Part shown: positions 1-55,259 of the stretch, piece after piece
Layout of the letters: each line of letters starts with the position of its first letter
How positions within the stretch are numbered: position 1 is the first letter of the stretch
DNA from: an uncultured bacterium
GTDB taxonomy: Bacteria > Zixibacteria > MSB-5A5 > CAIYYT01
Assembly: GCA_903903945.1 (NCBI GenBank)
Contig: CAIVAP010000244.1
Coordinates: forward strand, 1 to 55,259
Length of the DNA: 55,259 nucleotides
Reading direction: 5' to 3'
The notes under the pieces: model-generated
What the model was told of the DNA's origin: nothing
The model's database searches: none
Seen by the model: only the letters and a program-made list of their open reading frames with translations
Made by a program: the position numbers and the translations under genes

Positions 1-1
1 A

Positions 2-564
<563 letters not shown>

Positions 565-794
565 TTTAGGATCTCATGAGCCATTGCAGACTTGAAGGCG
601 TTGAGGGTGTAAAGGTGGCTTTCGTCGAAATGAGCCATCAAGTGACGTGACAACATACTCTGATATTACGCCAGACTTATTGGAACCGAAATGGATAGAG
701 GGCCTGATACGACTGAATCAAGCCCTCCCTCAACAACGAACATTGCCTTTCCCAAGTTTGATTTGAAATACAAAGGTGCTGATTTGTGTTGTAG

Positions 795-1859
795 TCAACT
801 AAGCAGTGCGCCTGCTCGGCGCTCGAGGCTTACTCGCTTGTCGGCAAATGGAATGCTTCGGGCGTATGCGGTGAGTCCCTGAGTCAGTCCCGAGCGCGTG
901 GTCACGTCTTCGCCTTCGGCAAGGCCGGTATTCCAGGCATTGGAGATTTCGATCTTGGTAAGGGGGATCTGTTTGAATGAGGTTGTGACTTCTTCAAGCG
1001 TGGCACCTATTCGATCTTCCATCGCTAGTTCTATGGCGTCTCTGATCCGAGCATCGAGATTTCGATTCTCTACGAAGCTATTCAGAACCGGAAGCGCATC
1101 GCTGTAGAATCGGGACAGTGCATGATTGCGATGGACAATTTTCAGTTCCTGCACTTCCTCTGCACCCCAAACAATGTGATTCCCGCAGACGAAATTGTAG
1201 AGGAATGTCGTCAGTCCGAACGTCGCCGATCCCGTTTCCGAATTCCACAGGAAAAATCCTTTGCCAAGACGTGCGTTTCCGACCTCCACCGGACGTTCGT
1301 CATTTACAAGAAAGACGAACATATCGCGGTCGGAGGCGTAGAGTCCGGCCGATCCCATCTTTGAATCCGGCGGATGCCAGTTGGTGTCCTTAACCGCTTC
1401 CAGAAGTTCGTAGATTACGTCGTAGTCCCAGATTCGCCCATAAGTCGGGCTAGTAAAAGCCGAGACTGCATTGCCGAAGTTGCTCTCGTCGGAATCGAAG
1501 GATTCGTTTTTCCTAACAAGCAACTTGGCCTCTCCGCCATTCTTCGCCATACCGTACTCAAGGCACTGAACAGCCATCCCAGCAGATAGTGATCTCAAGT
1601 ATCCCGCCGGTGCTTTTACCGACTGGCAGAGTTGCGAGAATGACCAATTGGTGAGCGCCGCATGCCGAATGTGTCCGTTCAGGAACATCCCGCCGCCGTG
1701 CGTTGCATGAAGTCGTAAGTCCCGCAGAGCATAGGTCTCCTCTAGTGCGTTACGCTTGCGCTTGCCGGTGAACTCGAGGATTGCATCAAGCGTTTTGAAG
1801 CGCTCGTCCGGCGGTCTCTTCACCCACTGTTTGTGGGCATCAACAAGTATCGTGGACAT
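795..1859 (-). CDS. DUF932-family protein
   Basis: Motifs YGRIWD, LYASDRDMFVFL and GFFLWNSETG...NFVCGNH resemble DUF932. ATG at 1859 has an AAAGGAG RBS. Confidence 0.75.
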   Translation of the reverse strand: MSTILVDAHKQWVKRPPDERFKTLDAILEFTGKRKRNALEETYALRDLRLHATHGGGMFLNGHIRHAALTNWSFSQLCQSVKAPAGYLRSLSAGMAVQCLEYGMAKNGGEAKLLVRKNESFDSDESNFGNAVSAFTSPTYGRIWDYDVIYELLEAVKDTNWHPPDSKMGSAGLYASDRDMFVFLVNDERPVEVGNARLGKGFFLWNSETGSATFGLTTFLYNFVCGNHIVWGAEEVQELKIVHRNHALSRFYSDALPVLNSFVENRNLDARIRDAIELAMEDRIGATLEEVTTSFKQIPLTKIEISNAWNTGLAEGEDVTTRSGLTQGLTAYARSIPFADKRVSLERRAGALLS

Positions 1860-1880
1860 GGTGTGTTTCTCCTTTCTCAA

Positions 1881-2642
1881 CTATCCACGCCATTTCTGGC
1901 AGTTTTCGAAGTACTCGCAATTCGGGCATTGCCATCCGGCATTCGGGTAGAATTGCCTCGCCTTGATTCCCTCGATTACGCGTTTGGCCAGGTGGAAGAA
2001 TCGGACTTTGTCGTTTTGATCCCGAAAGACTACAAAGCTGTGCAATTGTGGCTTCTTGGTCTTCGTGAGGATGTCCATCCGCAAGCTGGGCTCACGTTTT
2101 CGGAGCCAGCTGAAAGCATACGCGTAGGCCGTAAGCTGCAAATGCTGCGTTAGCGTAGTGAGGTCGTACACCTTGGCGGCGGTCTTCAATTCGACCACGA
2201 CGTCACCTTCTTCAAGAAGATCAAAGTAGCCATCCATCGGCAACTCAAGCCGTTCGCCGGTCTCAAGGTCAACCAGTGGTACCCGGAAAGACTGCTCGAC
2301 TGCTTTCGGAGCGCCCCCTTTGTATTCCTTGACGTAGACTGCCAGAAGCTCCTTGCCCTTGTCGATTATCGATTCAAGATCGCCACCGTTCTTGAATCGA
2401 ATTTCATCCACTGCCTGAGCATTCATGTCTGCCGCGAAGATTGCGGCAACGTCCTGCCATTCGTGAATAAAACCCTGTTGTTGTTCCTTGTGCCACCACT
2501 CGATAACGGAATGGATGGCGCTTCCTAAGGCGAGTTCTGCCGCCTTGAAGGGCCTCGGGAGTTCGTCGATATACTGATACCGGTACTTTAGCGGGCACAT
2601 CAGGTACAGGTTGATCTGTGATACCGATATGTGGTCGCGCAT
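1881..2642 (-). CDS. PD-(D/E)XK nuclease, RecB/AddB/Cas4-like, with 4-Cys Fe-S motif
   Basis: SVSQINLYLMCP, GSAIH, D...VELKT, QLTAY and C-terminal CPNCEYFENC. TAATG coupling to the upstream gene. Confidence 0.85.
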   Translation of the reverse strand: MRDHISVSQINLYLMCPLKYRYQYIDELPRPFKAAELALGSAIHSVIEWWHKEQQQGFIHEWQDVAAIFAADMNAQAVDEIRFKNGGDLESIIDKGKELLAVYVKEYKGGAPKAVEQSFRVPLVDLETGERLELPMDGYFDLLEEGDVVVELKTAAKVYDLTTLTQHLQLTAYAYAFSWLRKREPSLRMDILTKTKKPQLHSFVVFRDQNDKVRFFHLAKRVIEGIKARQFYPNAGWQCPNCEYFENCQKWRG

Positions 2643-3334
2643 TAGCTTGGCACTCCTTCCAAGCCCACATTTAGAATGTGATCAATCAGAGTACTGGCGT
2701 CCGGCTTCGAGGCATCCTTCAGAGATTCCACGCCAAATGCCCGCTTCAGGAAGTCGTGGGCATCATCGCCAGTGACTCCGCGCTCGGCAAGCAAGCGGAA
2801 AAGATAACGGCGCTGGTTTTCGGTCATGGGCTCATCCGGCGGGTCCTGACTGGCACGGTGGTTATTGCGAGTGCTCTCAGAACCGTCATTGCCGTTTCCC
2901 CCGGCTGCCGGCGCGGCTGCACCCCTCATCCCGTTTCCATGGCCATTATCCCCAACGCCATTGATGAACTCATCGGTCAGTTCTTCGAGGGCAATAACGC
3001 CGACGTTCACGGCGTCCCGCAGTGCTCTTGCTTTAGCGCGGGTAAACGCCATGCGAATGATGTGCGGAGCAATGATGGCGTTCACGTTGTTGGGGTTGGC
3101 GTCCCCACACTCGGTGAATACCCCTTTTTCTGTCACTACTCTCGCCATAGAAATCGCGGTCATTTCGTTGTCCGCGGAAGGGGCTTGCAGCAGCTTGGTT
3201 TCGATCTCTTTCAAGCCTTCCTGGTGGGCGCGATTGAGCAAGCCAGCGTACGTGACAACCTCTCTGGTTGCAATAACGCGGCCTTGGCGGTCCTTGATCT
3301 CGATGGTCGTGACCAAGTTCGACTGGGTGGTCAT
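2642..3334 (-). CDS. Putative single-strand annealing protein (Rad52/RecT-like) with low-complexity linker and small C-terminal helical domain
   Basis: ATG at 3334 with GAGGAGG RBS. GDA...IRMAFTRAKARALRDA motif. Located directly upstream of an exonuclease-like gene. Confidence 0.55.
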   Translation of the reverse strand: MTTQSNLVTTIEIKDRQGRVIATREVVTYAGLLNRAHQEGLKEIETKLLQAPSADNEMTAISMARVVTEKGVFTECGDANPNNVNAIIAPHIIRMAFTRAKARALRDAVNVGVIALEELTDEFINGVGDNGHGNGMRGAAAPAAGGNGNDGSESTRNNHRASQDPPDEPMTENQRRYLFRLLAERGVTGDDAHDFLKRAFGVESLKDASKPDASTLIDHILNVGLEGVPS

Positions 3335-3515
3335 AAGACCTCCTCTCGTTGTTTTGTGTTGGTGTCTAAATTGGAAAAGGACTGGGGTGGAAAGTGAAAC
3401 CTTCACAGACCACCTTCGAGAGGGAGCGTACAGGCCCCACAAACGCAATCAATTGCCGAATGAGGACACTTTTCCGCCCTAGATCGATGTGCCTCGCTTC
3501 CCTACGCTCAATCGT

Positions 3516-4796
3516 ATGACGAACAGAGAACTTCTCATCCTCGGCGAAACTAACTACCGAAATGACCGGAAGCGATTCGGCATCTTGAACGATGACCGCC
3601 GGCGACACATGTTTATTGTGGGGAAGACAGGGATGGGGAAATCCACACTGCTGTTAAACTGCATCGTGCAGGACATCCAGGCAGGGCGGGGGGTGGCTGT
3701 CATCGACCCCCACGGTGATCTCGTCGAGCGGGTACAGGACCATGTCCCGGCTAGACGCGTTAACGAAACGATCTACTTCAACCCAGCCGACGTGGACTAC
3801 CCGATTGCTTTCAATGTCCTCTCAAATTCCGACCCGAAGCAGCGGCATCTCGTCGCCTCGGGGGTCGTGCAAGTTTTCAAGAAGATCTGGTTTGATTCCT
3901 GGGGTCCGCGGCTGGAGTACGTGCTTCGAAACGCGATCTTGGCGCTGCTGGAAGCTCGCGGGCAGACGCTGCTAGGTATCAACCGGATGCTCGTTGATGA
4001 AGCATTTCGTCAGAGAATCATGAACGCCGTCAATGACCCGGTGCTTCGCCACTTCTGGGGCGTGGAGTTCGAGCAGTATCCGAAAGTCTTCCGTACCGAG
4101 ACGATCTCGCCGATTCTGAACAAGGTCGGCCAATTCCTCGCCAACCCGCTAATGCGGAACATTGTCGGACAGACGAAGACCAGATTCGACCTTTCGGAGG
4201 TTCTCGCTTCTGGGCAGATTCTGCTCCTGAACCTCGCGAAAGGGAAGATTGGCGAGGACAACTCCGCGCTTCTGGGGGCATTGATGGTGACACAGCTCTA
4301 CCTGGCGGCGTCGCGGCGGGCGTCAGTTCTCGAAGAGGAGAGGACTGACTTCTTCCTCTATATCGATGAAACGCACGCGTACGCGACGGAGGATTTCCCG
4401 TCAATTCTCTCAGAAGCGCGTAAGTACGGACTCGTGATAGCGGGCATGGCGAATCAATTCCTGGCGCAATTGCCGAAACAGCTTGTGTCAGCCATCCTCG
4501 GCAACGTCGGAACGCTCATCGCCTTCGCTTGCGGATCGGAGGACGCGGAGGCACTGGCACGAGAATTCTATCCGACCTTCAGGGCAGTCGATCTCAACAG
4601 TCTTCCGCAGTACAACGCGTACCTTCGACTATCCATCGACGGGAAAACGTCGGAGCCGTTCAGTGCGGAGACGTTGCCGCCGCCTGTTAGCCTCAAACAG
4701 TCGAGTCGAGGGAAGATCATCAAGCAGTCGCGGCAGCGCTTCTGCCGGAGTCTCCAGAGCGTGAATGAACGGATCGAACGATGGATGCACAATTAG
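3516..4796 (+). CDS. VirD4/TraD/HerA-like P-loop ATPase (T4SS DNA-binding/coupling-protein domain), no N-terminal TM anchor
   Basis: RRRHMFIVGKTGMGKS (Walker A), VIDPHGDL, FLYIDETH (Walker B), SEARKYG, ANQ. Start is 3516 or 3489. Confidence 0.85.
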   Translation: MTNRELLILGETNYRNDRKRFGILNDDRRRHMFIVGKTGMGKSTLLLNCIVQDIQAGRGVAVIDPHGDLVERVQDHVPARRVNETIYFNPADVDYPIAFNVLSNSDPKQRHLVASGVVQVFKKIWFDSWGPRLEYVLRNAILALLEARGQTLLGINRMLVDEAFRQRIMNAVNDPVLRHFWGVEFEQYPKVFRTETISPILNKVGQFLANPLMRNIVGQTKTRFDLSEVLASGQILLLNLAKGKIGEDNSALLGALMVTQLYLAASRRASVLEEERTDFFLYIDETHAYATEDFPSILSEARKYGLVIAGMANQFLAQLPKQLVSAILGNVGTLIAFACGSEDAEALAREFYPTFRAVDLNSLPQYNAYLRLSIDGKTSEPFSAETLPPPVSLKQSSRGKIIKQSRQRFCRSLQSVNERIERWMHN

Positions 4797-4999
4797 CATT
4801 TAGCCGCCCTGCTGCTCGCTATTTCCGGGGTGGGAAGAAGAAAAGCAACGAAGTTAACTTTGCCGAGACTAGAATCGCTCGGCGGTCCTTTGACGATAGG
4901 CAACCCACGATAGGGTCTCCGGAGCTGCAAGTACACCTTCTGGAAGCCAAAGCATTTGCGATTCGCAGTAAACACGCTATATTGTCTAATAGACACAGG

Positions 5000-5188
5000 A
5001 TGAAGTCCAAGATGAAACTCACTGCCGCTGCACTCAAGAAAGTTGGTGTAACCCTGACCGATCCTGACAGAATTATCCTTCACTGCGATCAATGCGATAA
5101 GGGATGGCAACCACAAATACAACCAGGTGGCAAGCTCCGTCGTCTCTACTTGGTCTGTCCGAACCGCTGCAACGAGCCGAGGCGTTAA
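5000..5188 (+). CDS. Small putative Zn-binding protein (~60 aa)
   Basis: CDQC...CPNRC motif. Candidate promoter TTGCGA-N16-TATATT at 4956-4983. Start is 5000 or 5012. Confidence 0.5.
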   Translation: MKSKMKLTAAALKKVGVTLTDPDRIILHCDQCDKGWQPQIQPGGKLRRLYLVCPNRCNEPRR

Positions 5189-5484
5189 AGTAACTGACTT
5201 CGGCGACACTTGAGCATCGTGACAGGATGGAGAGCGCGACAAGTTGCGCCGTCGTGGTTTAGGCCGTGACAGCGCCTAACTCTCCTTGATTCGTTGCTCG
5301 AAGTAGTTGAGTTCCACTTCGGCTAAACCAGATATTTCCGCGGCCATTCAGCCGGGTTCTTCAAAGCAACTTGATTCACGTCGAGCGTGAACGTTGGCAC
5401 TCGAAAGCTAATCTTTTTCGATAGTGCGGGCAGAATCAGACGGCTATTTCTCCGGAATGACCCTATCCACAAAGTTTGTCTGAC

Positions 5485-8400
5485 TCATCGAAGGGTCTGT
5501 CGTTCCTCCACAAGTGAATATATGTACGCTGTTAACGGCAACGCTCCAGCTACTCGAGGCAAATAGTTATGCGCCTCCGCAATGTGCTTCAGCCATCCCG
5601 GAACCGGCTCTGCATCCGCAGATTCACTTGAGAGCCTTGCTTTGTCTGAGAGTACGGCAAACGCAGAGTCGGGCGCGAGAATCTGTTGTGGCTGACCGTC
5701 GGATCCTACGTACTCAAGCTTTGCTCCCTGAGATTCCGCCTCCTTGTAGAAATCTCTAAGTCTGGCGGCAAGTTGATACGGCTTACCCCCAAAGTGCCCC
5801 GAACGCGAATTGCGCCAAAGCTTTTCGCCAGTCATCGTAGTTTCAATACCAGCTCTGATTAGGTATCCGTGGTCATAAAATTTTTCAGCAATCGCCTTAA
5901 ATATCCGTATGGCACTCGATACGTTGTCGCAGATCATGCCATTTCCGTCATCCTGATCCGGCTCGAATCCCATTGCCTTCTCACGTGTCGCAATGATTTC
6001 AAGGTCTCGGTTGATTTGGTGAATTATTTCCTGCAGCGGTCGGACTTCGCGCGTTCCGGAAGAACCCTTGATGTCCCACAAGAGTACCGCTTTGTCGACC
6101 TCAAAATAGCGGATTACAATTTCACTAACCGGGTAATGCCACGAAGACCAGACTTCAAGCACAGTCGTGCGTGTTCTCTCGAATAGCAATGAGACATTCT
6201 CCAGGCGACTTTCTATGCTCCCACTGTCCAGTTGCGCAGGTTCGACCTCGGGTGGCAACTGACAGGAGAGGCCACGTCTAAAAGCACCCCGTATGTACTC
6301 GTTGTACAGCGCAAGATGGTCCTTCAACTGTGTTCGCAACTCCGGCTTTCTTCGGTCATTGACGAGATCGTTTTCTGTCAGAACCGTTCTCGCGATTGAC
6401 ACAGCCTTGCCTGCCAACGCGGCTGCAAAGCGCAAGTAGCTCTCCCGAACTGTATGTTCACCCGGAGACAAATCAATTCTTGGTCGGATTGTATTTTGCC
6501 AATACGGCATACAGTGACCATAGCGTCCCATTTCAGATAATAATTCATCGACTTGCCGGATAACCTCAAAGCGCCTATCATACGAACCTTTCTTGATTTC
6601 CGTTTCACCGAGAAGATGAGCCGATTCGGCAAATTTCGCATCCAACCGTCCTGCGCTCACCCTGAGGTGTTGAGTGCCCGCTGTCGCGGCCAATTCGGCG
6701 AGAGACATAGCCAAATGGGAGGCGTTCATTAGAGGGTGGAACAGCCAGAGTTCAATCTCTTTGCTAATCGCGCACAGGTAGCTTGATTCATCATGACAGG
6801 TCGTCAGCGCGTGGAGTGCCTCGACACGCTCTGGTCCCTTGAGGTGGGATTCGAGGACCATGAACGTATCAACAAGGGACGCCGTCCTGTCTAACAGCCC
6901 GCGATCGATAGGATTCCGAGTCGGGTCGAACAGCTTCGACAGTGCCTTATTCCTGTATAGCATTCGGCCAGTACTGACTGCTCCAGATTGCCGCCGAATG
7001 CCACGTTTCTCATCCGATTGGAACAGATCAGTTTCCAGAGCCCAGTCAATTACAAACGGTTGCCGCGGATACTCCGGCAGCGTCGTCCGTGCCCCAAACT
7101 CGTCGAATCCGAGTGCGATCTCTACACTCAGGGCATTGTCAAGTTCCGCACTGAGGCCAACTTGCAAAGTGGCCAAAAGTTTCTCGCATACGAACCACGG
7201 GATTCCGTCAACTGCAGTATCACGATGTTCTCGTTTGAAGCACATGATCGCCTGAGCGAGAACATAGTCAAGCCAGTACTTGATCTTATGGTCGTGTGAG
7301 AGGTTTTCACCGAAGCGTATGCCACGAACCCATCTGTTTTCGTCATTTGTGGTGCGAACATAACGTGGAACAATTAGCCCCGAGTCAATGGAGGAATTAC
7401 AGCAATCGTGGAAGAGCGCGTCCGTGAGACGGACCCCGGACAGTTCAAGGAGTTGCTTCATTGCTGGGTAGGAAAGCGCAATGTCGAGACGTGACGAATC
7501 CAATCTACCGCTAGATCGGGTTGATTCATCCCAGACGAGCCGCTGCGCTTCCAGTACAGCAGCTAATGATTCGCGCGCGTGAGCGCCAGTGGTGTGAGCG
7601 AGGTACCGGTTTACCGTTGATAAGAACTTAGAGCCACTGCTCGTCCTGGCAAGTGTAAGCAACTCGCTCTCAATTTCAACTCGGTGCGTATCCCTCCACT
7701 CGGGCGTCGGCAGACCCGGTTCAGGCATTTCGCCCGCCAGAGCGGACCGAAGTTCCCTTTGCCATCCTGTGCACATGTCCAATCCGAAAATTAACCTAAG
7801 ATCACGTTCGGCGACTGACGGAGTATCAATCTCAATGCCCTTCAGGACTTCCGTAATCCAGCGCCAACCAAATTCAAAACTTCCCAAATAGTGTGCAGCG
7901 TTCATCAGTGCCTGATACCGTCTGGTCCGGTGAAGTGGGGAGTTTGCCGTAGCTTGAAGGGCGCTCCGCCAGAGAACGCCTAGTGGTCGTGGGCTGTGGT
8001 CGAATAGTGTGGTGTCAAGCATCTCGCTTTCAGTCAATGAAAGGCAGTATATGGGCACGACATTGAGATGTCGTTGTTTCCCATCGATGAATATCCGAAT
8101 CTGACATGGCCCTCGCTGGTAGGATGACAGCGAATGCACTTTCGCTTCCGACATAGCATCGTCATTAAAGACCGTTACGCCGCTGGCCGCATGCCAGCGC
8201 CGTGTATTGTCGTGCATCGAATCCCTGCGTGATTTCAAGTCCGCTAACATTGGCTCAAATGGCGTCGGAGAAGTGATGCCGATAATGGGATGGTCGACAT
8301 CGTAGGGGGTGCCGAGTGAACCGAATGATTGCACTTCGCTATCAATAAATTCCGCGATTTCGTCTTCGCGCACCTTCATCGACGCCTCTACTTTGCGCGC

Positions 8401-8760
8401 CAGTTCACTGTGTGCACCCCGCGAGATCGTGAGAACACAGCTGTGGACATCTGCATTGAAAAGAGAGAGTTCATCCATGACTCCTGCAAGCGTGGAGCCG
8501 AAGATCAAAGTGTCGTCGACCACAACTATCCGTCGGCCAGATAAAGTGGTCGCGTTGATGAAAGGCAGTGCCTTCTCAGTTACGCACTTCTCCCAAGGGA
8601 CAATTGGTGTGTTTGAAAACTGATCTACGAGCATCAGCAGTCGAGGTGCTTTGCGCGAGATTGCGACAATCAAGTCGTAGCGACTTTGGACAATACCACT
8701 GACGAACTTGGTAATGGGCTTCTGGTAGCGACTAAGAAAATGTCTCTCGTGAGCATCCAT
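5485..8760 (-). CDS. Large protein: N-terminal phosphoribosyltransferase domain plus C-terminal class III adenylate/guanylate cyclase-like domain
   Basis: PRPP-binding loop RIVVVDDTLIFGST. Cyclase motifs AVLLWDIKGSS, QDDG, IRAGI and GKPYQLAARL. Confidence 0.75.
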   Translation of the reverse strand: MDAHERHFLSRYQKPITKFVSGIVQSRYDLIVAISRKAPRLLMLVDQFSNTPIVPWEKCVTEKALPFINATTLSGRRIVVVDDTLIFGSTLAGVMDELSLFNADVHSCVLTISRGAHSELARKVEASMKVREDEIAEFIDSEVQSFGSLGTPYDVDHPIIGITSPTPFEPMLADLKSRRDSMHDNTRRWHAASGVTVFNDDAMSEAKVHSLSSYQRGPCQIRIFIDGKQRHLNVVPIYCLSLTESEMLDTTLFDHSPRPLGVLWRSALQATANSPLHRTRRYQALMNAAHYLGSFEFGWRWITEVLKGIEIDTPSVAERDLRLIFGLDMCTGWQRELRSALAGEMPEPGLPTPEWRDTHRVEIESELLTLARTSSGSKFLSTVNRYLAHTTGAHARESLAAVLEAQRLVWDESTRSSGRLDSSRLDIALSYPAMKQLLELSGVRLTDALFHDCCNSSIDSGLIVPRYVRTTNDENRWVRGIRFGENLSHDHKIKYWLDYVLAQAIMCFKREHRDTAVDGIPWFVCEKLLATLQVGLSAELDNALSVEIALGFDEFGARTTLPEYPRQPFVIDWALETDLFQSDEKRGIRRQSGAVSTGRMLYRNKALSKLFDPTRNPIDRGLLDRTASLVDTFMVLESHLKGPERVEALHALTTCHDESSYLCAISKEIELWLFHPLMNASHLAMSLAELAATAGTQHLRVSAGRLDAKFAESAHLLGETEIKKGSYDRRFEVIRQVDELLSEMGRYGHCMPYWQNTIRPRIDLSPGEHTVRESYLRFAAALAGKAVSIARTVLTENDLVNDRRKPELRTQLKDHLALYNEYIRGAFRRGLSCQLPPEVEPAQLDSGSIESRLENVSLLFERTRTTVLEVWSSWHYPVSEIVIRYFEVDKAVLLWDIKGSSGTREVRPLQEIIHQINRDLEIIATREKAMGFEPDQDDGNGMICDNVSSAIRIFKAIAEKFYDHGYLIRAGIETTMTGEKLWRNSRSGHFGGKPYQLAARLRDFYKEAESQGAKLEYVGSDGQPQQILAPDSAFAVLSDKARLSSESADAEPVPGWLKHIAEAHNYLPRVAGALPLTAYIYSLVEERQTLR

Positions 8761-9107
8761 GATGTTTCCCCAGTGTTTATCGACCCAAATTGATTGACCG
8801 CATTATTTTATGTATCATGATAATAGCCGGGTTGAATAGCCGACTCAATCCACTAGGAATTGTTCCTTGGCCTCAGGCACCGCCGCTCACACTGCCAGCA
8901 TGCGCCTTGTGAGCGGCTATTGAATTTACGAAACTGTGCCAGGAAGTCAAGTCTCCCGGAAGGCTGCTTGTGACCAATTTGTGACTATAATCAGTCCCGA
9001 ACCGTCAAAATTGATCCAAAGTAGTACTTCAATGGATCGCTGCTATCCTGCCGTAGTCCAACGCAATGCGTTGATGCTCATTCGTTTGTGTTTTCGTCGG
9101 GATCGCT

Positions 9108-9146
9108 TTTCAAGTCCCTTGCGTCTACCAATTACGCCACTCCGGC
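9108..9146 (-). pseudogene. tRNA-Leu 5' half (through the anticodon loop; loop reads CTTGAAA)
   Basis: GCCGGAGTGGCGTAATTGGTAGACGCAAGGGACTTGAAA on the minus strand; no 3' half follows. Confidence 0.85.
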
Positions 9147-9165
9147 AATTGGTAAGGTGTTCAGC

Positions 9166-9194
9166 AATTTAGGCTTAACTTCGAAAGGACGCAA
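9166..9194 (-). promoter_or_regulatory. Sigma70-type promoter for the cassette-borne tRNA 5' half
   Basis: TTGCGT-N17-TAAATT, about 20 nt upstream of the tRNA start; same geometry as at 14296-14324. Confidence 0.6.
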
Positions 9195-9696
9195 GGGACT
9201 TTTGTCCCGGTGCGCGCTTGATTGTACTTGATTGATAGATTGTCACTTGAGCTGAGATTGGCTAGGTGTTGTGACCAATTTGTGACTGCCGAGAGTTTGA
9301 TGACAGGGTCAGTCTGAGAAAAAAACGCTTCGTTTAATCAATCTGAACAAGTTGTATGCGATAAGAGAGCCAGCCTTCTCGGGGCTCAGTCTTCTTGAAT
9401 CGGTCGAGGTCGATTGTCGACTAGATTGGCCCCTCGGGACAGTATTTGCCCACTCCCGTGACAGCTTTTTTCAGGAAAGAACTTCTCAGCAACAAGGTTG
9501 AATACCGCAACCGCATCTTGCCTCAAGCCCCCTACGTGTTTAGACTTAGCTGACGGCAAACAGTCACGGTGAGCGGCGTCATGTCAAACTCGAAAAAGTG
9601 CTTTTCACAGCTTGACCGCGCAGCTGAGATTTCTCAACGATCAGCTTGGACCTAGGTCGCCCTTCCCAACCTCACACAGTGGATGGTTGTGTCACT

Positions 9697-9777
9697 TTAT
9701 GTGAGCTTGGTCAAGATGCAGAGCACGGCCAATACGACTATTCCAGCTATCATAGGGATTATCGTGACCTTCTTCAT
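9697..9777 (-). CDS. 26-aa single-TM peptide MKKVTIIPMIAGIVVLAVLCILTKLT (type I toxin-like)
   Basis: Translated by hand (below the ORF track cutoff). Strong RBS AAGGAAGGAAGG; basic N-terminus and hydrophobic core. Confidence 0.55.
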   Translation of the reverse strand: MKKVTIIPMIAGIVVLAVLCILTKLT

Positions 9778-10420
9778 GCGGCCTTCCTTCCTTATTCGAG
9801 GATGTTTATCCTCCCGTCCATATGTTCGGCGGATATGAAGGAAATGTTTAGTCGGTTTGGAAGGGAACTCCTATCGGTGACTGACAGACCCCCGAGGTGG
9901 CATGTGTGCTAGTAACGCCTGTGACGTCACGTCGGTGACCTGGATCTACCAAAGCGATTGGCTAAGAGGACGCTTCTTGCTCTCCCGCAACGACTGTGAC
10001 GAGGTACGTGATTCGTGCACAGGTAACCTATTAGTACGCAAGCCATTAGGCGTCTAACGAAATGGGGTGCTGTCAAAGTTAGAGAACCAAGCAACCAGGG
10101 TCGCGACGACGCTACCTGTCCATCAGTACGATGAAGTTGGCTCAATCGTGAAGTTGGCACCAGACGCAGTTCTCCTTTCAAAAGCTGTTCTTCCACGGCC
10201 AATCGCACGAATTCGCGGCTGCAACGACATGTCTTGACCCTTGATGCTGCACCGGACGGATCCAGGACTTTGGATCACTGAGAGTACTCGTGTTTCTGGC
10301 ACTGAACGCGTTGACACGACACAGCAAAAAACATCATATTGCCAATCACAAAGGCCTTTTCTAACTGAACAGAATTTTCTATTTTGTCTATCACTTGAAA
10401 AAAGAAGGAGCGAGACTTCA

Positions 10421-13400
10421 ATGAAAGAGATTCAGATTCTGCATTGCTCTGATATTCACTGCGGGGCGAACTTCATCCTCTCCCCAAAAGAGGTAGCAAA
10501 TTACTCCAGGTTGTCGCCAGAGTGCTATCTTGCCGAAAAGGTCGCCAAAGATGTTGCAGCGAACTTCCCGAAGCGTCTTGATCTAGTGGTTGTCAGCGGA
10601 GATGTCAGCGAGAGCGGTGTGAAAGTGGAGTTTGAGATGGCTTGGCGGTTTTTGGAACACTTGATCAACTGCCTTCGAGATTCGAAGAAACAGCAGTTAT
10701 CCATGGATCAACTCATCGTTGTTCCAGGCAATCATGATATCAACTTCGACGATAACAAGACTGCTTACAAAGCCGCCAAGGGCAGGAAACCCGCCTACCA
10801 GTTCACGGAGAGACTCGACAGATTTGGTGAATTCTACAAGCGGATATATGCGAGGACATCGCACGCACGCACATATAATAAAGAGCAAGGGATTCACATT
10901 TTCAGATATCCGGACTTGGGGATGGCTGTATTTGGCTTCAACTCGTGCGGCAAGATCGGCCACACTACGCCATCGGCACCGGGTCATCTTCTCCCCGAAG
11001 ACATACTTTCGGCATTCGATCAACTCAAAGATGTCGAAAAGTATCCTGCGCGCATTGGCATCTTCCACCATAACGCGGTGGAAGTGCCAGTATTTGGAGA
11101 GTTTGACCAGCGTGACTGCTTGTCGTCAGCTGCGGTCGATCATTCGGCTTTTGTAAGGAGCGGCATATCCGCACTTCTTTATGGGCACAGGCACAGAGCG
11201 ATCACCGATACGTTGCTTCCATCAGGCGCGAAGAAGTCTGAAGCTATTGCATGTGTCGGCGCGAACTCACTCGGATGTGCGAGCGATTTGCGGCCCGGCA
11301 GTCATAACGGATATCAAATGATCACGATCCAAATCGAGGATGATAGTTGGGACATTAGCGTCGTTAGTAGAGTCCTCGATCTGACTACCCCGGCTACAGG
11401 TAGTGATTCCACTCCTGGGGTGTTTTCGAATGAATATCCAAAACCCTCAAGAGTTCGACTGTCACTTCGCAGTGTACGCCGCGAAAAGCAGGAAGTGTCG
11501 GCGCTACGAAACGAGAGCGGACGGGTCAAGAAGGAACCGGCACAGAGGCAGCGTCGTGGCTCCTTATCAGTCGAAACATTGCCGAAGAGCAAGAGACTTG
11601 GAACAGCCAGAATAGACATCAGTACAAAACTAGAAAGCCTGGGCGTGTTCAAAGGTTTGGGAATGATGAAGGAAGCGCAAAAGACGCTCAACGAGTTGAA
11701 GAAGTACGCCCGTGCAGATGTCGACAGGGCGCTGATCAGGTGTCTGAACAGCGAACTCGAAATCAGAAGTCTCCTCGATGAGGAGAAAATGAACCATGCG
11801 GCTCTGAGGGAAAAGTTCCAATTGATCTACAACATTCTGAGTGCTCCTGAGATAAAGGACTCATTTTCCTCGAGCGTCTTTCCAAGAGCAGCCTTTGATA
11901 CCGAGTTAGCTCGCAGCGAATACTGGAGTACACACTTCGCAACCGGGTTTTCTCAAGTCACACGTCCCGACACATACAAGTACATTAGAGAGGCAAGAGA
12001 GGCATTCGAAAAGTCGAAAAGAACTGACCACGAGATCAACAGGCACCTCATACTAATGCTGTTGAATCAAAATGAGTTTGCGCATGCCCGGCAGGCACTA
12101 CTGGAGGCAATTTCCTTAAGTCCCCAATATGCACCCTACTACGTCTTGAAAGCAGAGCTGGCTGAAAGGGAGATGCGCTACCAAGACGCTCTTGAATGCC
12201 TGCGCGAAGCTAAGTCCATCATGGATGGCAGGCCATGCCAAATGGTCGACTTCATGATAATGTATTGCCACTACTTTCTGGGTAACTATGAAGAAGCCGC
12301 AAATCTTATGAAAAAGGGAATTAGATCTTGGCCGAATAACAAAGGAATGGCGAACAACTATGCGTTCCTCAAGACAAGAGAGGCCAGACGGGAATTCGGA
12401 GACAGACTTTGGACAGAACAGCCCAAGAAGGCAATCGACTTGCTTCAGAGGTTCCTGAAAGCTATTGACAAGATAGGAACGCATGACACAGCCCATTTCA
12501 ACTACGCCTTGTTGGTATACTGGGCGTCACTGGAAGGAAAACAAGAAATTGCGATCAGGATATTGGGTGACAACGATAGGAAGAACTTGGAGCGGGTCGA
12601 TGACATCATCGAGTATCTCTTCAGAAAAGCAAGAGAGTTGTATCTCGAGAATCACGATTATATACATGGCTTCGTCGCGTCGTATTTCGCAGAGAAGGCC
12701 AAAGCGGGCAAGGCAAGCAGTATAAGGGATCTGCTCCTTGACGAATTCGCTTGGGACAATGACAATTTCTATACGTTCGGACACACCCTACGAAATCGAA
12801 AGCGTGCGCTTCTCGCAAAAGACAGAGCGATCAAGAACTTGTTTGGGTTTGGGCACATCGCGACTCTCAGAAGATGGAAGCGGGAATCATCGTCTTTTGC
12901 CGATACGGGTGCGCTGGCAGGCGGGGGCTACTATTTCAAGTGGCAAGACAAGGGACTAGTCGTCAATCCCGGGGCAGGTTTTCTAGCAAACTTCCAGCGC
13001 CGGGGCTATTCCATAAACGAGATTGATGCCATAATCGTGACATCCTCACACTATTCTGCTTACGAGGAATTTACTGACCTGTTGGAACAGGTGAAACAGG
13101 CCCACCGTTATAGGCCGAAGGAAGAGCGAGTTGCCGTCTACTTGGAGGGTTCCGTGCTCCAGAGGTTCCCTGATCTGGCTATTCGCAAAGTGCTCAGCAT
13201 TCAAAATCCACAAGTACTACCCGATAGGGAGACTTTCCTGTTTGGCGGAGAGCTCGTGCTTGAGTCGGCAATTCCTTGTGACAACGCTGGCCATATGACC
13301 GAGAGCACGAACGAGAGCTCTCTCTACAATCCGCCCGTTCTGACCAGACTGAAATTGATGGAGAATGGAACAGCTGTATCTTCCATATGCATAGTCAACA

Positions 13401-14002
13401 GTTTCTGTCCTTCGGACTCTGCACTCTCCTTCTTGAAAACCTGTGACTACTTGCTCGTCAGCATTGGCGCTTTCACTCCTTATGACCTCTTCAAGGCGTC
13501 CATGAATGAACAAATGAAGGCAGATTTGAGACAGCTCAGCTGTTACGACTCTCTTTACATAGAGAGTTTCGGTCTTAATTCCATAGCTGAGCTTCCTGAG
13601 GAATATGTCGAGACAACGAATGATAGAGTGTGCGGACTGAGTGATCAACACAATGTCAGTCTTGATCAGTTGATTCGTCTGGCTGATAGTATTCGCGATA
13701 TGAAAGGAAAAGTGGTAGTACTCGGCAATCTACCCCCGGAACTTGGAGACAAGAGACATGGTCTCGCCAAAGTACTAAACAAGTACTATCCTGATGGACC
13801 ATCGTATCTCACTGAGGACCTTGGATTGGTAATCGGACTACGAAAGAAGGAAGTACTATGCGAATGCTGCCACTCATGGGTGACGTTGTCCAACCTGAGA
13901 GAGGAGTGTATCGAAGGGAGGCTTACTGGTCTCATCAAGCACTTCTGTGAGAAGCACAGGCATGAAAAAGGATTTTCGGGTTTTCTGAGGAGAGAAGAGT
14001 GA
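10421..14002 (+). CDS. Calcineurin-like metallophosphoesterase + TPR + degenerate MBL-fold domain protein (putative defence/conflict protein)
   Basis: ATG at 10421 with GAAGGAG RBS. SDIH, SGD, PGNHD, FHH and YGHRH motifs. TPR-like helices in the middle. GGGYYFKW..GLVVNPG...IDAIIVTSSHYSAY is MBL-like but lacks HxHxDH. Confidence 0.8.
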   Translation: MKEIQILHCSDIHCGANFILSPKEVANYSRLSPECYLAEKVAKDVAANFPKRLDLVVVSGDVSESGVKVEFEMAWRFLEHLINCLRDSKKQQLSMDQLIVVPGNHDINFDDNKTAYKAAKGRKPAYQFTERLDRFGEFYKRIYARTSHARTYNKEQGIHIFRYPDLGMAVFGFNSCGKIGHTTPSAPGHLLPEDILSAFDQLKDVEKYPARIGIFHHNAVEVPVFGEFDQRDCLSSAAVDHSAFVRSGISALLYGHRHRAITDTLLPSGAKKSEAIACVGANSLGCASDLRPGSHNGYQMITIQIEDDSWDISVVSRVLDLTTPATGSDSTPGVFSNEYPKPSRVRLSLRSVRREKQEVSALRNESGRVKKEPAQRQRRGSLSVETLPKSKRLGTARIDISTKLESLGVFKGLGMMKEAQKTLNELKKYARADVDRALIRCLNSELEIRSLLDEEKMNHAALREKFQLIYNILSAPEIKDSFSSSVFPRAAFDTELARSEYWSTHFATGFSQVTRPDTYKYIREAREAFEKSKRTDHEINRHLILMLLNQNEFAHARQALLEAISLSPQYAPYYVLKAELAEREMRYQDALECLREAKSIMDGRPCQMVDFMIMYCHYFLGNYEEAANLMKKGIRSWPNNKGMANNYAFLKTREARREFGDRLWTEQPKKAIDLLQRFLKAIDKIGTHDTAHFNYALLVYWASLEGKQEIAIRILGDNDRKNLERVDDIIEYLFRKARELYLENHDYIHGFVASYFAEKAKAGKASSIRDLLLDEFAWDNDNFYTFGHTLRNRKRALLAKDRAIKNLFGFGHIATLRRWKRESSSFADTGALAGGGYYFKWQDKGLVVNPGAGFLANFQRRGYSINEIDAIIVTSSHYSAYEEFTDLLEQVKQAHRYRPKEERVAVYLEGSVLQRFPDLAIRKVLSIQNPQVLPDRETFLFGGELVLESAIPCDNAGHMTESTNESSLYNPPVLTRLKLMENGTAVSSICIVNSFCPSDSALSFLKTCDYLLVSIGAFTPYDLFKASMNEQMKADLRQLSCYDSLYIESFGLNSIAELPEEYVETTNDRVCGLSDQHNVSLDQLIRLADSIRDMKGKVVVLGNLPPELGDKRHGLAKVLNKYYPDGPSYLTEDLGLVIGLRKKEVLCECCHSWVTLSNLREECIEGRLTGLIKHFCEKHRHEKGFSGFLRREE

Positions 14003-14098
14003 AAATCTACCTTCCCTGAGTTGTTCCTACGTCAGCAATAGCTGGACATGTAGGGGCTCTTGAAGTAAGATGCTGGTACGGTGACCGACACATCCACG

Positions 14099-14277
14099 TT
14101 GTGACCGATTTGTGGCTACGAACTGTCCAAGTCAATCAAAACTGATACAAAGTAATACTTGAGATTTTTCCCGGCATCCACTTACCGCACAATATAATAC
14201 GTTGATAGTCAATCACTTGCATCTTCGTCTGGTTCGCTTTTTAAGTCCCTTGCGTCTACCAATTTCGCCACTCCGGC
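14099..14277. mobile_element. Outer att site (island/host junction)
   Basis: Arm TTGTGACCGATTTGTGGCT (14099-14117), conserved block TCAAAACTGATACAAAGTAATACTT, and perfect IHF consensus TATCAACGTATTA (minus, 14195-14207). Colinear with 8968-9146. Confidence 0.8.
14239..14277 (-). pseudogene. tRNA-Leu(UAA) 5' half, displaced by integration at the anticodon loop
   Basis: GCCGGAGTGGCGAAATTGGTAGACGCAAGGGACTTAAAA, followed by non-tRNA sequence. Confidence 0.88.
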
Positions 14278-14295
14278 AATTGGTGAAACGTCAGG

Positions 14296-14324
14296 AAGTT
14301 ACATAAATTCAAGGTGGAAGGCAA
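14296..14324 (-). promoter_or_regulatory. Probable native tRNA-Leu sigma70 promoter
   Basis: TTGCCT-N17-TAACTT, about 19 nt upstream of the tRNA start. Confidence 0.6.
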
Positions 14325-14391
14325 GCGGGGATGCGTAAGTGGCAGGGTGGCCTGGACGTTCGCCCGGGTTTCAGACGCGGACTCGCTTAAT

Positions 14392-14418
14392 GTCAGGAGC
14401 GCAGGGCTCCTGACCTAC
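14392..14418 (-). repeat. GTAG-type REP hairpin
   Basis: GTCAGGAGC-gcagg-GCTCCTGAC followed by CTAC. Confidence 0.55.
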
Positions 14419-14497
14419 AAGACTCACGAGATCAATCGCTGTGTGTACGACAAAATGCCACCCTTGCGATTGGGCACCCGACTTTGGCTGAGACGGA

Positions 14498-14911
14498 TCA
14501 GAAACTCGAATAGGCTCCTGACATGCGACGCTGCTGCGCCTCGTACTCCAAGCACGGGCGAAGCGCTGCGAACGATCTACTATTGTTGCCCCATACGTCA
14601 ATGACGAAGGATGACCGAATGACAATTCGTGAACAAGTGCCATTCTTCTTAAATCCTACAAATGCGAGATTTGGCGTCATTGCAAACTGAAGACGTGCCA
14701 ACCCCAGCATCTCCAGCGCTCTGCGGCCGTCTTCCTCAGTTCCCCCGACAGCACTGTGGAGATAGAGCAACTCCTCGCTCCTCGCCCGAGCAAAGGCTGC
14801 GACTGATTCACCAGTTGCTTCCCCCGGAACTATTAGCATCACGAAATCGGGAAGCTGACTCTGTTCGTGTTTGGGGGGGTCATTTTGTTTGCGCTTTGAG
14901 AACCATCCCAT
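14498..14911 (-). CDS. Hypothetical protein
   Basis: 137-aa ORF with GGAGG RBS; no recognised motif. Confidence 0.5.
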   Translation of the reverse strand: MGWFSKRKQNDPPKHEQSQLPDFVMLIVPGEATGESVAAFARARSEELLYLHSAVGGTEEDGRRALEMLGLARLQFAMTPNLAFVGFKKNGTCSRIVIRSSFVIDVWGNNSRSFAALRPCLEYEAQQRRMSGAYSSF

Positions 14912-15049
14912 TGTAGTGTCCTCCTTACCTATCGACTAAAGTGAAGACGGTTTCGTCTATCCGATCTTCTGACAAATTCCCGTACGTCGCATATTCTCTA
15001 TCGGGCATAAGGTGTCCAACCCCAAGGTTGGGTGCGTTATGACCTGTCC

Positions 15050-15574
15050 CTACTCTTCAATCGTCACCTGACACGCCTTGAACGTCGGTGGATTGGCCAC
15101 AAGATTCAGCTGGAGGTCGTAGAAACTAAGTGGCAGTCGCGGATAATCGAATGTATTCAGCAGAAAAGTCGTGTCGGGTGCGCTCGTGCGAACCATAAAA
15201 TAGATCGTGGCGAGCAGGCCGCGACCGGTCGCAACTGCGGCAGAATCGTCAACAACGCCAATCGAGATCGTGTCAGTTTTGGCAAGAACATTTTTGAACA
15301 TAAATTGATCGGCGCGGCTGTTCTTGAACGAGACCGAATCGAGATGCAGGAGAGAGGAGGGGAATAATATAGGCACGTTGATTGCGGACAGAGAGACCTC
15401 GTTGTCGAAGTTGACCGGCACGGTAAAAACCTCTCCGGGCGCAGCCTGAATCTTCTCGGGTAAGTAGACCCGATTCGCAATCTTTTCCGGCTCGTCGCTG
15501 CTATCGCCGCACCCTACGATTCCGGCGCCTATTAGAAAGAACAGTGTGGCGAAAACGCGGCCAAATCGAAACAT
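15050..15574 (-). CDS. Cohesin-like domain lipoprotein
   Basis: Signal peptide with lipobox IVGC. PGEVFTVPV...GLLATIYF beta-sandwich pattern. Confidence 0.7.
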   Translation of the reverse strand: MFRFGRVFATLFFLIGAGIVGCGDSSDEPEKIANRVYLPEKIQAAPGEVFTVPVNFDNEVSLSAINVPILFPSSLLHLDSVSFKNSRADQFMFKNVLAKTDTISIGVVDDSAAVATGRGLLATIYFMVRTSAPDTTFLLNTFDYPRLPLSFYDLQLNLVANPPTFKACQVTIEE

Positions 15575-15759
15575 CTCAACTCCATTCCAGCATGTCTATC
15601 AGTTAGATAACGCGCCACGGTACAATTTGTCCAATGCTTTTTTTGGCTACCGCGGTGATTGTTCAGCAGGAATCGGTGTTTTAGTGCAACTAAGCACTAC
15701 AAAATCAGTTGCCAATCGTATCATAGTTTGTATTATACCGCGAGTTGAGTGGAGGATAT

Positions 15760-16956
15760 ATGAATTCTGTTGAATTGGCCAGGAAAGTTTTCTGGGTGGG
15801 GGCGGCAGACCCTGATTTGCGGGTATTCGATATCGTCGTTAAGACGGATTACGGAACAACCTACAATTCCTATCTACTCGTGGGGGAAAAGGTAGCTCTG
15901 ATCGATGCGGTCAAAGAGGGGTTCGAGAATGTTCTCTTCGCCCGTATTGAGGAACACGTACCGTTAGAGCGGATCGACTATCTGATCGTCAATCACACCG
16001 AACCCGACCACTCCGGCGCCATCAAGCTACTTCTGGCGCGCAATCCCAAGATCAAGCTCGTATGCTCCAAACCGGCGGTGCCGTTTTTGAAGAATATCGT
16101 CAACGACGAATCAGTCGCGATCGATGGCGTCAAAGGTGGCGACCGTCTCGATCTGGGAGGGCTGACGCTCGAATTTATCTCGGCTCCATTTATGCACTGG
16201 CCGGATACTATGTTTACCTATTGTCCCGAGGAGAAGATTCTTTTCCCGTGCGACGGGTATGCGGCGCATTTTGCCCCTTACGAATCAATCTTCTTCAAAC
16301 CGGGGGACAAGGTGCATGAGAAGGAGGCATGGCACTACTATGACGCGATCATGCGTCCGTACGCGTCCTTTTGTCGGAAAGCATCGCAGGCCGTGATTGG
16401 CATGGATATCAAAATCGTAGCACCATCACATGGGCCAATCAACCGCGACGAGCCGAAGCGTTTTATCGAAAAGTATCTGGAATGGACAGCGCCGAAGAAC
16501 GTTGGCGACAAGAAGCGCGTCCTAATAGCTTTTGCCAGTTCTTATGGAAATACCAGAATGATGGCGCAGGAGATCGACCAGACGCTCCAGCAGGCCGGTT
16601 TGTCAACCACAATGGTGGACCTGGCTCATATCCCCGCGAAGGAGTTACGTGATCATTATGAAGCGGCTGACGCGATTCTTTTTGGTACGCCGACTTTCGT
16701 CGGCGATGTGGTCAAGCCGGTGTGGGACGCTGCCCAGCTATTGATGACGGTTTCGAGCGTCGGCAAAAAGGCCGCCGTGTTTGGCTCCTATGGCTGGGGA
16801 GGGCAGGCGGTGGACATATTGGAATCATACCTTGAAGGCCTCAAGCTCAAAGTGCACAAGCCCGGCGTTAAGGCAAGACTGGTTCCTTCGCAGACGGAAT
16901 TGGAGGAATGCAGACGTTTTGCTGAGGCGTTTAGTGGATTCGTGCGGCAGGGATAG
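15760..16956 (+). CDS. fprA: Flavodiiron protein (FprA/A-type flavoprotein)
   Basis: GTTYNSYL, NHTEPDHSG, HWPD and PSHG motifs plus a flavodoxin domain (SSYGNT, FGSYGWGG). GGAGG RBS. Confidence 0.93.
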   Translation: MNSVELARKVFWVGAADPDLRVFDIVVKTDYGTTYNSYLLVGEKVALIDAVKEGFENVLFARIEEHVPLERIDYLIVNHTEPDHSGAIKLLLARNPKIKLVCSKPAVPFLKNIVNDESVAIDGVKGGDRLDLGGLTLEFISAPFMHWPDTMFTYCPEEKILFPCDGYAAHFAPYESIFFKPGDKVHEKEAWHYYDAIMRPYASFCRKASQAVIGMDIKIVAPSHGPINRDEPKRFIEKYLEWTAPKNVGDKKRVLIAFASSYGNTRMMAQEIDQTLQQAGLSTTMVDLAHIPAKELRDHYEAADAILFGTPTFVGDVVKPVWDAAQLLMTVSSVGKKAAVFGSYGWGGQAVDILESYLEGLKLKVHKPGVKARLVPSQTELEECRRFAEAFSGFVRQG

Positions 16957-55057: not shown

Positions 55058-55179
55058 CATTGCAAAGTGCAATGGATGTGTTGCAGATTCCTTTCTCCAA
55101 CTCCTCTTTTGAGGATTGTTTCTATTCGCAACTCAAGTCAATCACTGGTCTGCCATGCAGTTAAGACGCGCTCCTGTTT

Positions 55180-55195
55180 TGGCATCACAATTGCA
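55180..55195 (+). promoter_or_regulatory. Sigma-54 -24/-12 promoter
   Basis: TGGCAT-CACAA-TTGCA with canonical GG/GC spacing. Confidence 0.85.
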
Positions 55196-55223
55196 TGGAT
55201 GTGAGCAGACCGTTACGAGGAGA

Positions 55224-55259
55224 ATGATGCGTTACTCAAGACTCAATCAGAAAGGTTTC
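55224..55259 (+). CDS. Start of type IV pilin/prepilin-like protein (truncated by window edge)
   Basis: GAGGAG RBS; MMRYSRLNQKGF ends at the G/F prepilin cleavage site. Confidence 0.75.
   Translation, partial: MMRYSRLNQKGF

Follow-up and report, generated by a model that had tools for sequence, protein, structure and literature searches.

The window analysed here is the whole of contig CAIVAP010000244.1 (C244, 55,259 nucleotides, nt), one of the 302 contigs of a metagenome-assembled genome (MAG) of an uncultured bacterium (GCA_903903945.1, labelled G000 and 84% complete), and the subject is a pair of truncated tRNA-Leu genes within it, copy A and copy B, together with the sequences that flank them. 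The public runs holding this stretch are freshwater-sediment metagenomes of one study. A single tRNA-Leu(UAA) gene was found among the 48 tRNAs of G000, and it lies on a separate contig, C147. The two repeats in C244 are very probably the left-hand junctions (attL type) of two integrative elements, termed el1 and el2, that stand head to tail in this only tRNA-Leu(UAA) gene of G000. Relatives were sought in a comparison set of 285 genomes of the class Ignavibacteria, labelled G001 upward. The features at the junctions, in the direction of the tRNA and ending with the gene on C147, are these:

14279..14324, minus: native host leader and promoter-like hexamers of tRNA-Leu(UAA), conserved before the intact tRNA in G003 and G001; TTGCCT (14324->14319), N17, TAACTT (14301->14296), then a 17-nt leader
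14239..14278, minus: copy B (nt 1-40), probably the host's own displaced 5' half
14099..14238, minus: P' arm of el2, which starts AGCGAACC, holds conserved blocks and has the arm motif at its end (14099-14117)
10241..14002, plus: el2 cargo gene, encoding a metallophosphoesterase and TPR protein of 1253 amino acids (aa) by Pfam
9148..9287, minus: P arm of el2, without an integrase, arm motif at 9269-9287; partial copy of the tRNA anticodon arm at 9188-9201; hexamers TTGCGT (9194->9189), N17, TAAATT (9171->9166), then an 18-nt leader
9108..9147, minus: copy A, a 5' half probably brought by el2 and later displaced by el1
8968..9107, minus: P' arm of el1, with the arm motif at its end (8968-8986)
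C147, 21754->21667 (complement 21667-21754): working tRNA-Leu(UAA), intact and uninterrupted

Two tRNA-Leu halves and their arms

The original prediction, made from the letters of the window alone, had described two colinear att-like repeats that each end in a tRNA-Leu 5' half cut at the anticodon loop, and both parts of this description stand, with the strand corrected to minus. A repeat search returns a pair of 89 nt at 9065-9153 and 14196-14284 (85% identical) and a motif of 19 nt at 8968, 9269 and 14099, and the degenerate arm motif has three matches in the window with 0.02 expected from shuffles. Nucleotides 1-40 of the G000 tRNA-Leu(UAA) are matched on the minus strand by 14278->14239 at 40 of 40 positions and by 9147->9108 at 38 of 40, copy A differing once in the D loop and once in the anticodon (TAA to TGA). 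Both copies are oriented as the gene is, as direct repeats of the tRNA part at the far end of the elements, and lie on a contig other than that of the intact gene. Both leave the tRNA sequence directly past the anticodon loop, reading CTTAAAA/AGCGA where the intact gene reads CTTAAAA/TCCCT, and each half continues into a homologous arm of about 140 nt that ends in the motif TTGTGACCAATTTGTGACT (plus-strand writing). When the copies are aligned, 39 of 41 nt agree in the tRNA part and 89 of 138 (64%) in the arm beyond it. Two further claims, of a shared block TCAAAA.TGAT.CAAAGTA.TACTT and of arms on both sides of the inner site, hold as well: the block is in both copies and conserved in relatives, and the motif stands at 8968 and at 9269. 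A putative integration host factor (IHF) site fares worse, as WATCARNNNNTTR occurs once in copy B (14195-14207), not in copy A, and 5 times in the window with 2.9 expected. A correction of another kind is that el2, the unit between copies A and B, carries no integrase. The P' arm of el2 (14099..14238) is 61-73% identical to the arms behind four other displaced halves, and its P arm 74% (106/143) to the arm before fragment F3 of G004.

The arm motif GTCACAAATTGGTCACA is composed of two half-sites 11 bp apart and stands 55 to about 60 nt before the tRNA start, in the 3' coding end of the integrase, and again about 160 nt after the tRNA start. Its type changes in both arms together, the P and P' motifs being both of GTCAC type in G000, G004, G008, G073 and G135 and both of GACAC type in G011 and G126, and this covariation over seven genomes is what speaks most strongly for protein binding at the motif; the types are discordant in G120, and G238 could not be assessed. 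Judged from sequence, it is most likely an arm-type binding site of the integrase. The junction motif AGGGACTTAAAAAGCGA, searched at up to one mismatch in the 285 genomes, gives 24 matches in 17 of them (10 exact). A reversed-pattern control gives 15 matches in 14 genomes, so that lone one-mismatch matches mean little; at least two co-oriented matches on one contig are found in 6 of the 285, and in this sense the arrays that the prediction expected in other genomes do recur.

Part of the tRNA is also echoed within the P arm of el2, where 9188-9205 is a partial copy of the 5' strand of the anticodon arm. Right arms without an integrase (at the L046/L047, L106, L116, L118 and L119 junctions) hold such an anticodon-arm piece, CACC(A)GGGAC..., some 65-75 nt before the tRNA half and just ahead of a −35-like CTTGCG, and in the window the piece forms a hairpin GGGAC-AAAA-GTCCC and a perfect inverted repeat of 14 nt (I15) with copy A. 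An extra core-type site, a relic junction or a promoter part are all possible.

The working gene, its integrase and the empty site

The original prediction had proposed looking to the left for a tyrosine integrase and an intact tRNA-Leu, and as the window is the whole of C244 both are found on C147 instead. Directly upstream of the C147 tRNA, and co-directional with it, an open reading frame (ORF) for a tyrosine integrase of 385 aa reads into the tRNA 5' end and stops 54 nt inside the gene. Pfam PF00589 matches it at E 9.8e-36 over profile positions 2-170 of 172, and the R, HxxR and Y can be read in the translation, which places a tyrosine recombinase with its catalytic residues at the element end beside the intact tRNA. 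The same arm motif lies within the last codons of the integrase, and an excisionase-like HTH_17 ORF of 71 aa precedes it.

Relatives show the uninterrupted site that the prediction had called for. On contig C54 of G003, a genome of the same genus, one intact tRNA-Leu(UAA) adjoins both outer flanks, its upstream side matching C244:14239-14346 (89% over 108 nt) and the tRNA with its downstream side matching C147:21754-20189 (86% over 1569 nt). The upstream match recurs before the intact tRNA of G001, also of this genus (91% over 87 nt), and the upstream flank of G002 is colinear with C244:15751-23833. It follows from the G003 site that all between C244:14238 and C147:21755 is inserted. At the C147 tRNA the integrase stands on the 5' side and the 3' side is 86% identical to the host flank of G003, and the displaced fragments cover nt 1-40, as in islands with a 5' tDNA fragment. 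The host side is therefore the 3' half of the tRNA and the element side the 5' half, the reverse of the usual polarity, as the prediction had held.

The extent of el1 comes from relatives too. C244:786-4787 is 70-85% identical in protein to the distal end of integrase-bearing elements in G004 and G008, and the proximal ends of those elements match C147; since the two contigs match the two ends of one such element, el1 appears to span both, over at least 37 kb.

In the mechanism proposed, members of this family would recombine at the anticodon loop, their attachment site carrying the 5' 40-43 nt of the tRNA with upstream promoter-like sequence rather than the 3' part, so that each arrival would join its own 5' half to the 3' half of the host and push the previous 5' half upstream. 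Read in the tRNA direction the locus would then run from the host flank with its native promoter (14324->14279) through copy B, el2, copy A and el1 to the working tRNA and the other host flank, with el1 made up of C244:8967->1, an assembly gap and C147:50129->21755, and with xis-int at its end. Copy B would be the displaced half of the host, copy A would have come with el2 and been displaced when el1, or a composite of el2 and el1, arrived, and the working 5' half would derive from el1. The integrase would bind the arm motif, and el2 would move only with, or by means of, an integrase-bearing partner.

Several observations weigh against this account. C147 and C244 are physically unjoined and an end-overlap search between them found nothing, the sole overlap of C244 being 93 nt at its right end with contig C80; as the MAG is 84% complete, the order of the two contigs rests on synteny with relatives. 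The downstream flank of G002 is not syntenic with C147, tblastx matching there only a widespread secretion-tail domain, which is uninformative. Junctions A and B are each spanned by contigs from four public runs of the one study, possibly the source of the assembly, yet over window positions 7500-15800 these contigs show no joint that skips el2 and no form of attP or attB type, that is neither an excised circle, a restored empty site nor a form lacking el2, although contigs cannot show absence. A generic promoter scan reports none of the proposed tRNA promoters. Finally, the reversed integrase of G014 (at tRNA-Thr, with in-frame stops) falls outside the clade to which the others belong, on a long branch.

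That clade is widespread in the class, 35 of the 285 genomes having a relative of the integrase at E<=1e-45. Thirty loci were inspected, 21 at >=44% identity and 9 at 35-40%. In 18 of the 21 the integrase lies directly before a co-directional tRNA, whose start is −339 to +37 nt from the int stop, the targets being Leu-taa (11), Leu-tag (2), Leu-caa (2), Ser (2) and Arg (1) and hence mostly the long-arm tRNAs Leu and Ser; no tRNA is called at the other three (one at a contig end, one a fragment, one with none). Among the nine more distant loci four have the usual layout, in which the integrase faces a tRNA from its 3' side, one is co-directional at 181 nt and four have no tRNA. In a tree of 29 sequences, from which the partial G135, G166 and G063 were left out and to which G014 and G009 were added, a branch with 99/99 support splits off 19 rows, of which 16 are reversed and 3 unlabelled, from the remaining 10, of which 5 are usual, 1 is reversed and 4 are unlabelled. 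A search for displaced 5' halves, cut at nt 40-43, succeeded in G011 and in five of seven further genomes queried (G238, G126, G135, G073 and G120) but not in the other two, G163 and G066; in G073, G126, G238 and G163 the contig ends within 10 kb beyond the integrase. The reversed trait belongs to a coherent integrase clade in many Ignavibacteria genera. In G126, where a reversed element occupies tRNA-Ser(CGA), there are also two 30-nt fragments of the 3' end of that tRNA (nt 57-86, 97%; C4:92452-92481 and C3:2856-2885), which suggests that this gene, or one like it, is a target of usual-polarity elements as well.

The overlap of the integrase ORF with the tRNA, seen in 9 of the 18 reversed loci, looks incidental from the sequences, because the other nine stop 6-37 nt before the tRNA and because the offset from the tRNA start to the ORF end differs modulo 3 among loci. 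A regulated C-terminus of the integrase, in which the tRNA half of the excised form would be followed by 10 further codons and a stop, was considered and set aside. All five distinct arms keep an in-frame stop at one place (TGA in four, TAA in one), but a coding constraint is unsupported, the variable sites in these codons falling 5, 3 and 5 at codon positions 1, 2 and 3 with no excess at the third.

As to transcription of the rebuilt gene, the prediction of a −35/N17/−10 promoter before each half survives in part. The hexamers are where they were claimed to be, each set agreeing with the sigma-70 consensus at 7 of 12 positions, but, as said, the scan does not report them. Their positions, 17-18 nt from the tRNA start, are plausible because other tRNA genes of G000 carry similar hexamers (TTGnnn-N16-18-TAnnnT) at 6-37 nt. 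The claim that the element brings the promoter needs correcting at copy B: the region before it is native to the host, since it is conserved before the intact tRNA of G001 and G003. The promoter of the working tRNA would be element-borne. A TTGCAC-N17-TATCGT sequence lies 8 nt from its start, inside the tail of the integrase ORF, and is conserved in G004, in G008 and before the G011 fragment, where the ORF is absent; the working tRNA would be transcribed from it, or by read-through from int. Right arms without an integrase have instead CTTGCG-N17-TAAnTT about 18 nt before the 5' half, which resembles the native tRNA-Leu promoters of other lineages such as G021, and in G112 such an arm serves an intact working tRNA gene. 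Before the intact tRNA-Leu(UAA) of G007 and of G026 there is sequence like the promoter of the integrase-type arm (GGTTGCGC...AAATCGTTATTGT), with a close integrase absent from both (the best match in G007 is 32% identical and elsewhere, and G026 has none). By its sequence this promoter may be an element-derived leftover after decay.

Because elements have taken over the promoter and 5' half of the only such gene found, the host would depend on element sequence to express tRNA-Leu(UAA).

Integrase-less units and competing explanations

El2 measures 5.1 kb and holds one large gene between two arms that both carry the arm motif, so that it is bounded at each end by arm motif and tRNA half and lacks an integrase or excisionase of its own, as a cis-mobilisable unit would. 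Its 1253-aa protein matches Pfam Metallophos (E 2e-10) and TPR_14 (E 2.9e-5) and, below threshold, the NCBIfam anti-phage phosphoesterase DS9_1 (89.8 bits, cut-off 420), DS8 and PADLOC PDC-S60; two small ORFs of el2 match no family. Units of this kind stack in relatives, as had been supposed. G004:C2 has three fragments (23256, 35474, 46905) and the tRNA (78411) on one contig and G008:C6 two (40556, 51987) and the tRNA (90327), with an integrase solely in the unit beside the tRNA. The cargo of the G004 inner units is trehalose synthesis, Na+/H+ exchangers and MscS and ClC channels, or a P-type ATPase with an RND efflux set. Further fragment-plus-arm units, spaced from 1.3 kb, occur in G112, G136 and G201.

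Whether such units still move bears on the strongest rival, which keeps the same architecture but takes the integrase-less units (el2 and the two inner units of G004) as dead remnants that have lost xis-int, in an immobile fossil stack. The rule of insertion makes distal units the earlier arrivals, copy A carries two mutations, arrays exist in genomes without a close integrase (G112:C3 and G201:C1), and, as noted, the contigs of the four runs hold no excision product. Yet tblastn with the integrase at E<=10 found no integrase remnant in any inner unit (el2, G004, G008), matching in el2 only the tRNA-derived part, and the right arms of inner units are no truncated int genes but form a conserved type of their own, in which the arm motif is accompanied by hexamers like those of native promoters. 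Moreover G004 and G008, whose host flanks are 68-73% identical, share at 97.9% identity a 16.7-kb block that takes in an entire inner unit, crosses the internal junction and reaches 5 kb into the integrase-bearing element, which argues that the unit moved recently within a composite; by sequence this fits co-transfer of the G004/G008 analogue of el2 with an integrase-bearing element. A fossil stack is possible but on the unlikely side.

A bolder extension, speculative and rather doubtful at present, is that integrase-less units are a distinct class of cargo cassette, each made of a P' arm, a few adaptive genes and a P arm with an integrase arm site, a tRNA-type promoter and a tRNA 5' half, and served in trans or carried as composites by the integrase clade. 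The tRNA-Leu(UAA) site would then be an open-ended, integron-like stacking platform in which the promoter of a single-copy host tRNA is repeatedly replaced, and some lineages would now carry element-type or foreign-looking tRNA promoters with no integrase left. The hints towards it are the modular cargo (osmotic-stress genes, metal efflux, a candidate anti-phage phosphoesterase), the 1.3-kb units, the G112 arm that serves a tRNA and the integrase-type promoters of G007 and G026.

Very improbable, by comparison with the stack of two elements, is that the fragments arose by partial duplication in place or by decay of tRNA-Leu genes, with the 140 nt that they share being a repeat unconnected with them. 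Fragments of tRNA genes are common in prokaryote genomes according to the part of the literature drawn on here (PMC9897764), but the empty site of G003 joins the outer flanks exactly at the tRNA, the ends of el1 match G004 and G008, an integrase abuts the intact gene on C147, and the same fragment-plus-arm unit bounds elements in at least eight other genomes; the empty site and the el1 ends already contradict local duplication. A group I intron interrupts the anticodon loop of tRNA-Leu(UAA) in cyanobacteria and plastids, so that the break here is at a classic position, but a reading of the fragments as 5' exons of a gene that is split or holds an intron can be dismissed as next to impossible, as ARAGORN and Rfam find no whole tRNA and no RNA family at gathering score in the window, no 3' half lies behind either fragment, and C147 has the gene uninterrupted.

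Related systems and neighbouring sequence

Bacterial islands with a reversed target orientation are said, in papers citing Zhao and Williams (2002, J Bacteriol 184:859), to have been described there. In the portions of the Islander paper used here (PMC4383910), 159 of 3919 islands have a 5' fragment and 3760 a 3' fragment, 2083 sites are centred on the anticodon, and there are 125 tandems of at least two; tandem arrays formed by tyrosine-recombinase elements that re-use one site are likewise given for bacteria and archaea in the excerpted text of PMC6563490. Islands with a 5' tDNA fragment, as those sources present them, are like the present case in that an element-borne 5' part restores the gene and the host fragment is displaced upstream, and differ in that here a whole Ignavibacteria integrase clade (18 loci) is involved and most stacked units lack an integrase. 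Islander, by the same portions of that paper, rejects candidates without an integrase and requires one in every member of an array (PMC4383910), and island-finding software of this kind would therefore miss integrase-less members. Going by these partial sources, reversed polarity and tandem arrays are already described and rare, and the present case is a well-documented bacterial member. It opens no new principle but is a clean, checkable case of a rare arrangement, and more interesting is whether integrase-less units of promoter and 5' half form a cassette system of their own.

Among archaeal elements, pTN3 and TKV4 of Thermococcus, with an SSV-type integrase, target tRNA-Leu; attP and attB of pTN3 share 41 bp, its minimal site is nt 2-44 of the tRNA, and the rebuilt tRNA is cut off from its original promoter (from the passages used of PMC5495485). 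El1 is like pTN3, so far as those passages go, in using the 5' half of tRNA-Leu as site. The attP of pTN3 lies inside its int ORF, as those passages have it, and integration splits and inactivates the gene, whereas here the catalytic domain is whole (2-170 of 172); this system is moreover bacterial, is flanked on each side by lambda-like arm repeats and has its excisionase-like HTH_17 gene apart from int. A 'suicidal' integrase of SSV or pTN3 type does not fit, as the integrated copy keeps a complete 385-aa ORF and only the tail past the catalytic Tyr overlaps the site. Mx8 and SSV are cited as precedents for an int ORF extending across attP in the Islander portions consulted (PMC4383910), and the nine loci whose ORF runs over the attachment site resemble them, unlike the nine that stop short. 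Archaeal plasmid integrases are reported in the part of a review drawn on here to target mostly long-arm tRNAs, which the Leu and Ser preference of the reversed clade mirrors.

For el2 the nearer comparison is with cis-mobilisable elements (CIMEs) among the integrative and conjugative elements (ICEs) of Streptococcus, which are bounded by att sites, lack recombination genes and can travel with an adjacent integrase-bearing element. For CIMEs the target is a protein gene, at its 3' end; each unit here also contributes the 5' half of a tRNA along with promoter-like sequence.

Among the useful cargo of the stacks are, in G000, a candidate anti-phage gene, AbiE and type I-C cas genes, and, in relatives, genes for metal efflux and osmoprotection. 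Past xis-int on C147 follow two Replic_Relax ORFs, a TrwB-like ATPase, a second integrase, a serine recombinase, AbiE and type I-C cas genes. C147:35001-50129, part of el1 or its neighbourhood, has a large serine recombinase, an AbiEii/MarR-type pair and type I-C-like cas genes (Csd1-like, Cas7, Cas3) up to the contig end. The genes of conjugation type in el1 are two Replic_Relax ORFs and TrwB/HerA-like ATPases, a type IV secretion set not having been searched for beyond these ORFs and the middle of el1 lying in the assembly gap. The distal part of el1 on C244 comprises:

1..8967, minus: el1 distal part (Pfam), which runs off the contig
5485-8760, minus: 1091-aa ORF
3489-4796, plus: HerA/TrwB-like ATPase (Pfam)
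2642-3448, minus: unnamed ORF
1881-2642, minus: PD-(D/E)XK nuclease (Pfam)
795-1880, minus: DUF932 protein (Pfam)

The 1091-aa ORF has a weak phosphoribosyltransferase-like stretch at residues 69-132 (Pfam 18.8 bits, below cut-off). It sits between the el1 arm and the genes common to G004 and G008, and from this placement it would be extra cargo in G000.

Among species-representative genomes, related loci are close only in two already known Ignavibacteria MAGs (79-81%), and the best segments of the other ten matches are 24-63% identical. Exact-match scans of metagenome contigs for the junction gave no match for 44 nt and two for 23 nt, with the arm motif in one of these two and an integrase in neither. 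In the read-source contigs, three runs have a joint at window 14391-14424 that 'goes back 34', and the bin 14148-14424 has a depth about 5-fold above that of neighbouring bins, where intact tRNA-Leu genes from other organisms pile up on copy B. At the right end of the window the last 93 nt (55167-55259) are identical to the start of C80 (16,023 nt), likely an assembly join.

At a second leucine tRNA of G000, a 113-aa open frame on C251 (711-1223) matches residues 18-121 only of the integrase (45% identical) about 110 nt upstream of tRNA-Leu(CAA), and C209:8755-9530 has an identical tRNA-Leu(CAA), followed some 650 nt later by a tRNA-like piece of 32 nt; these loci may represent strain variants, or else a relative that has decayed at another Leu tRNA.

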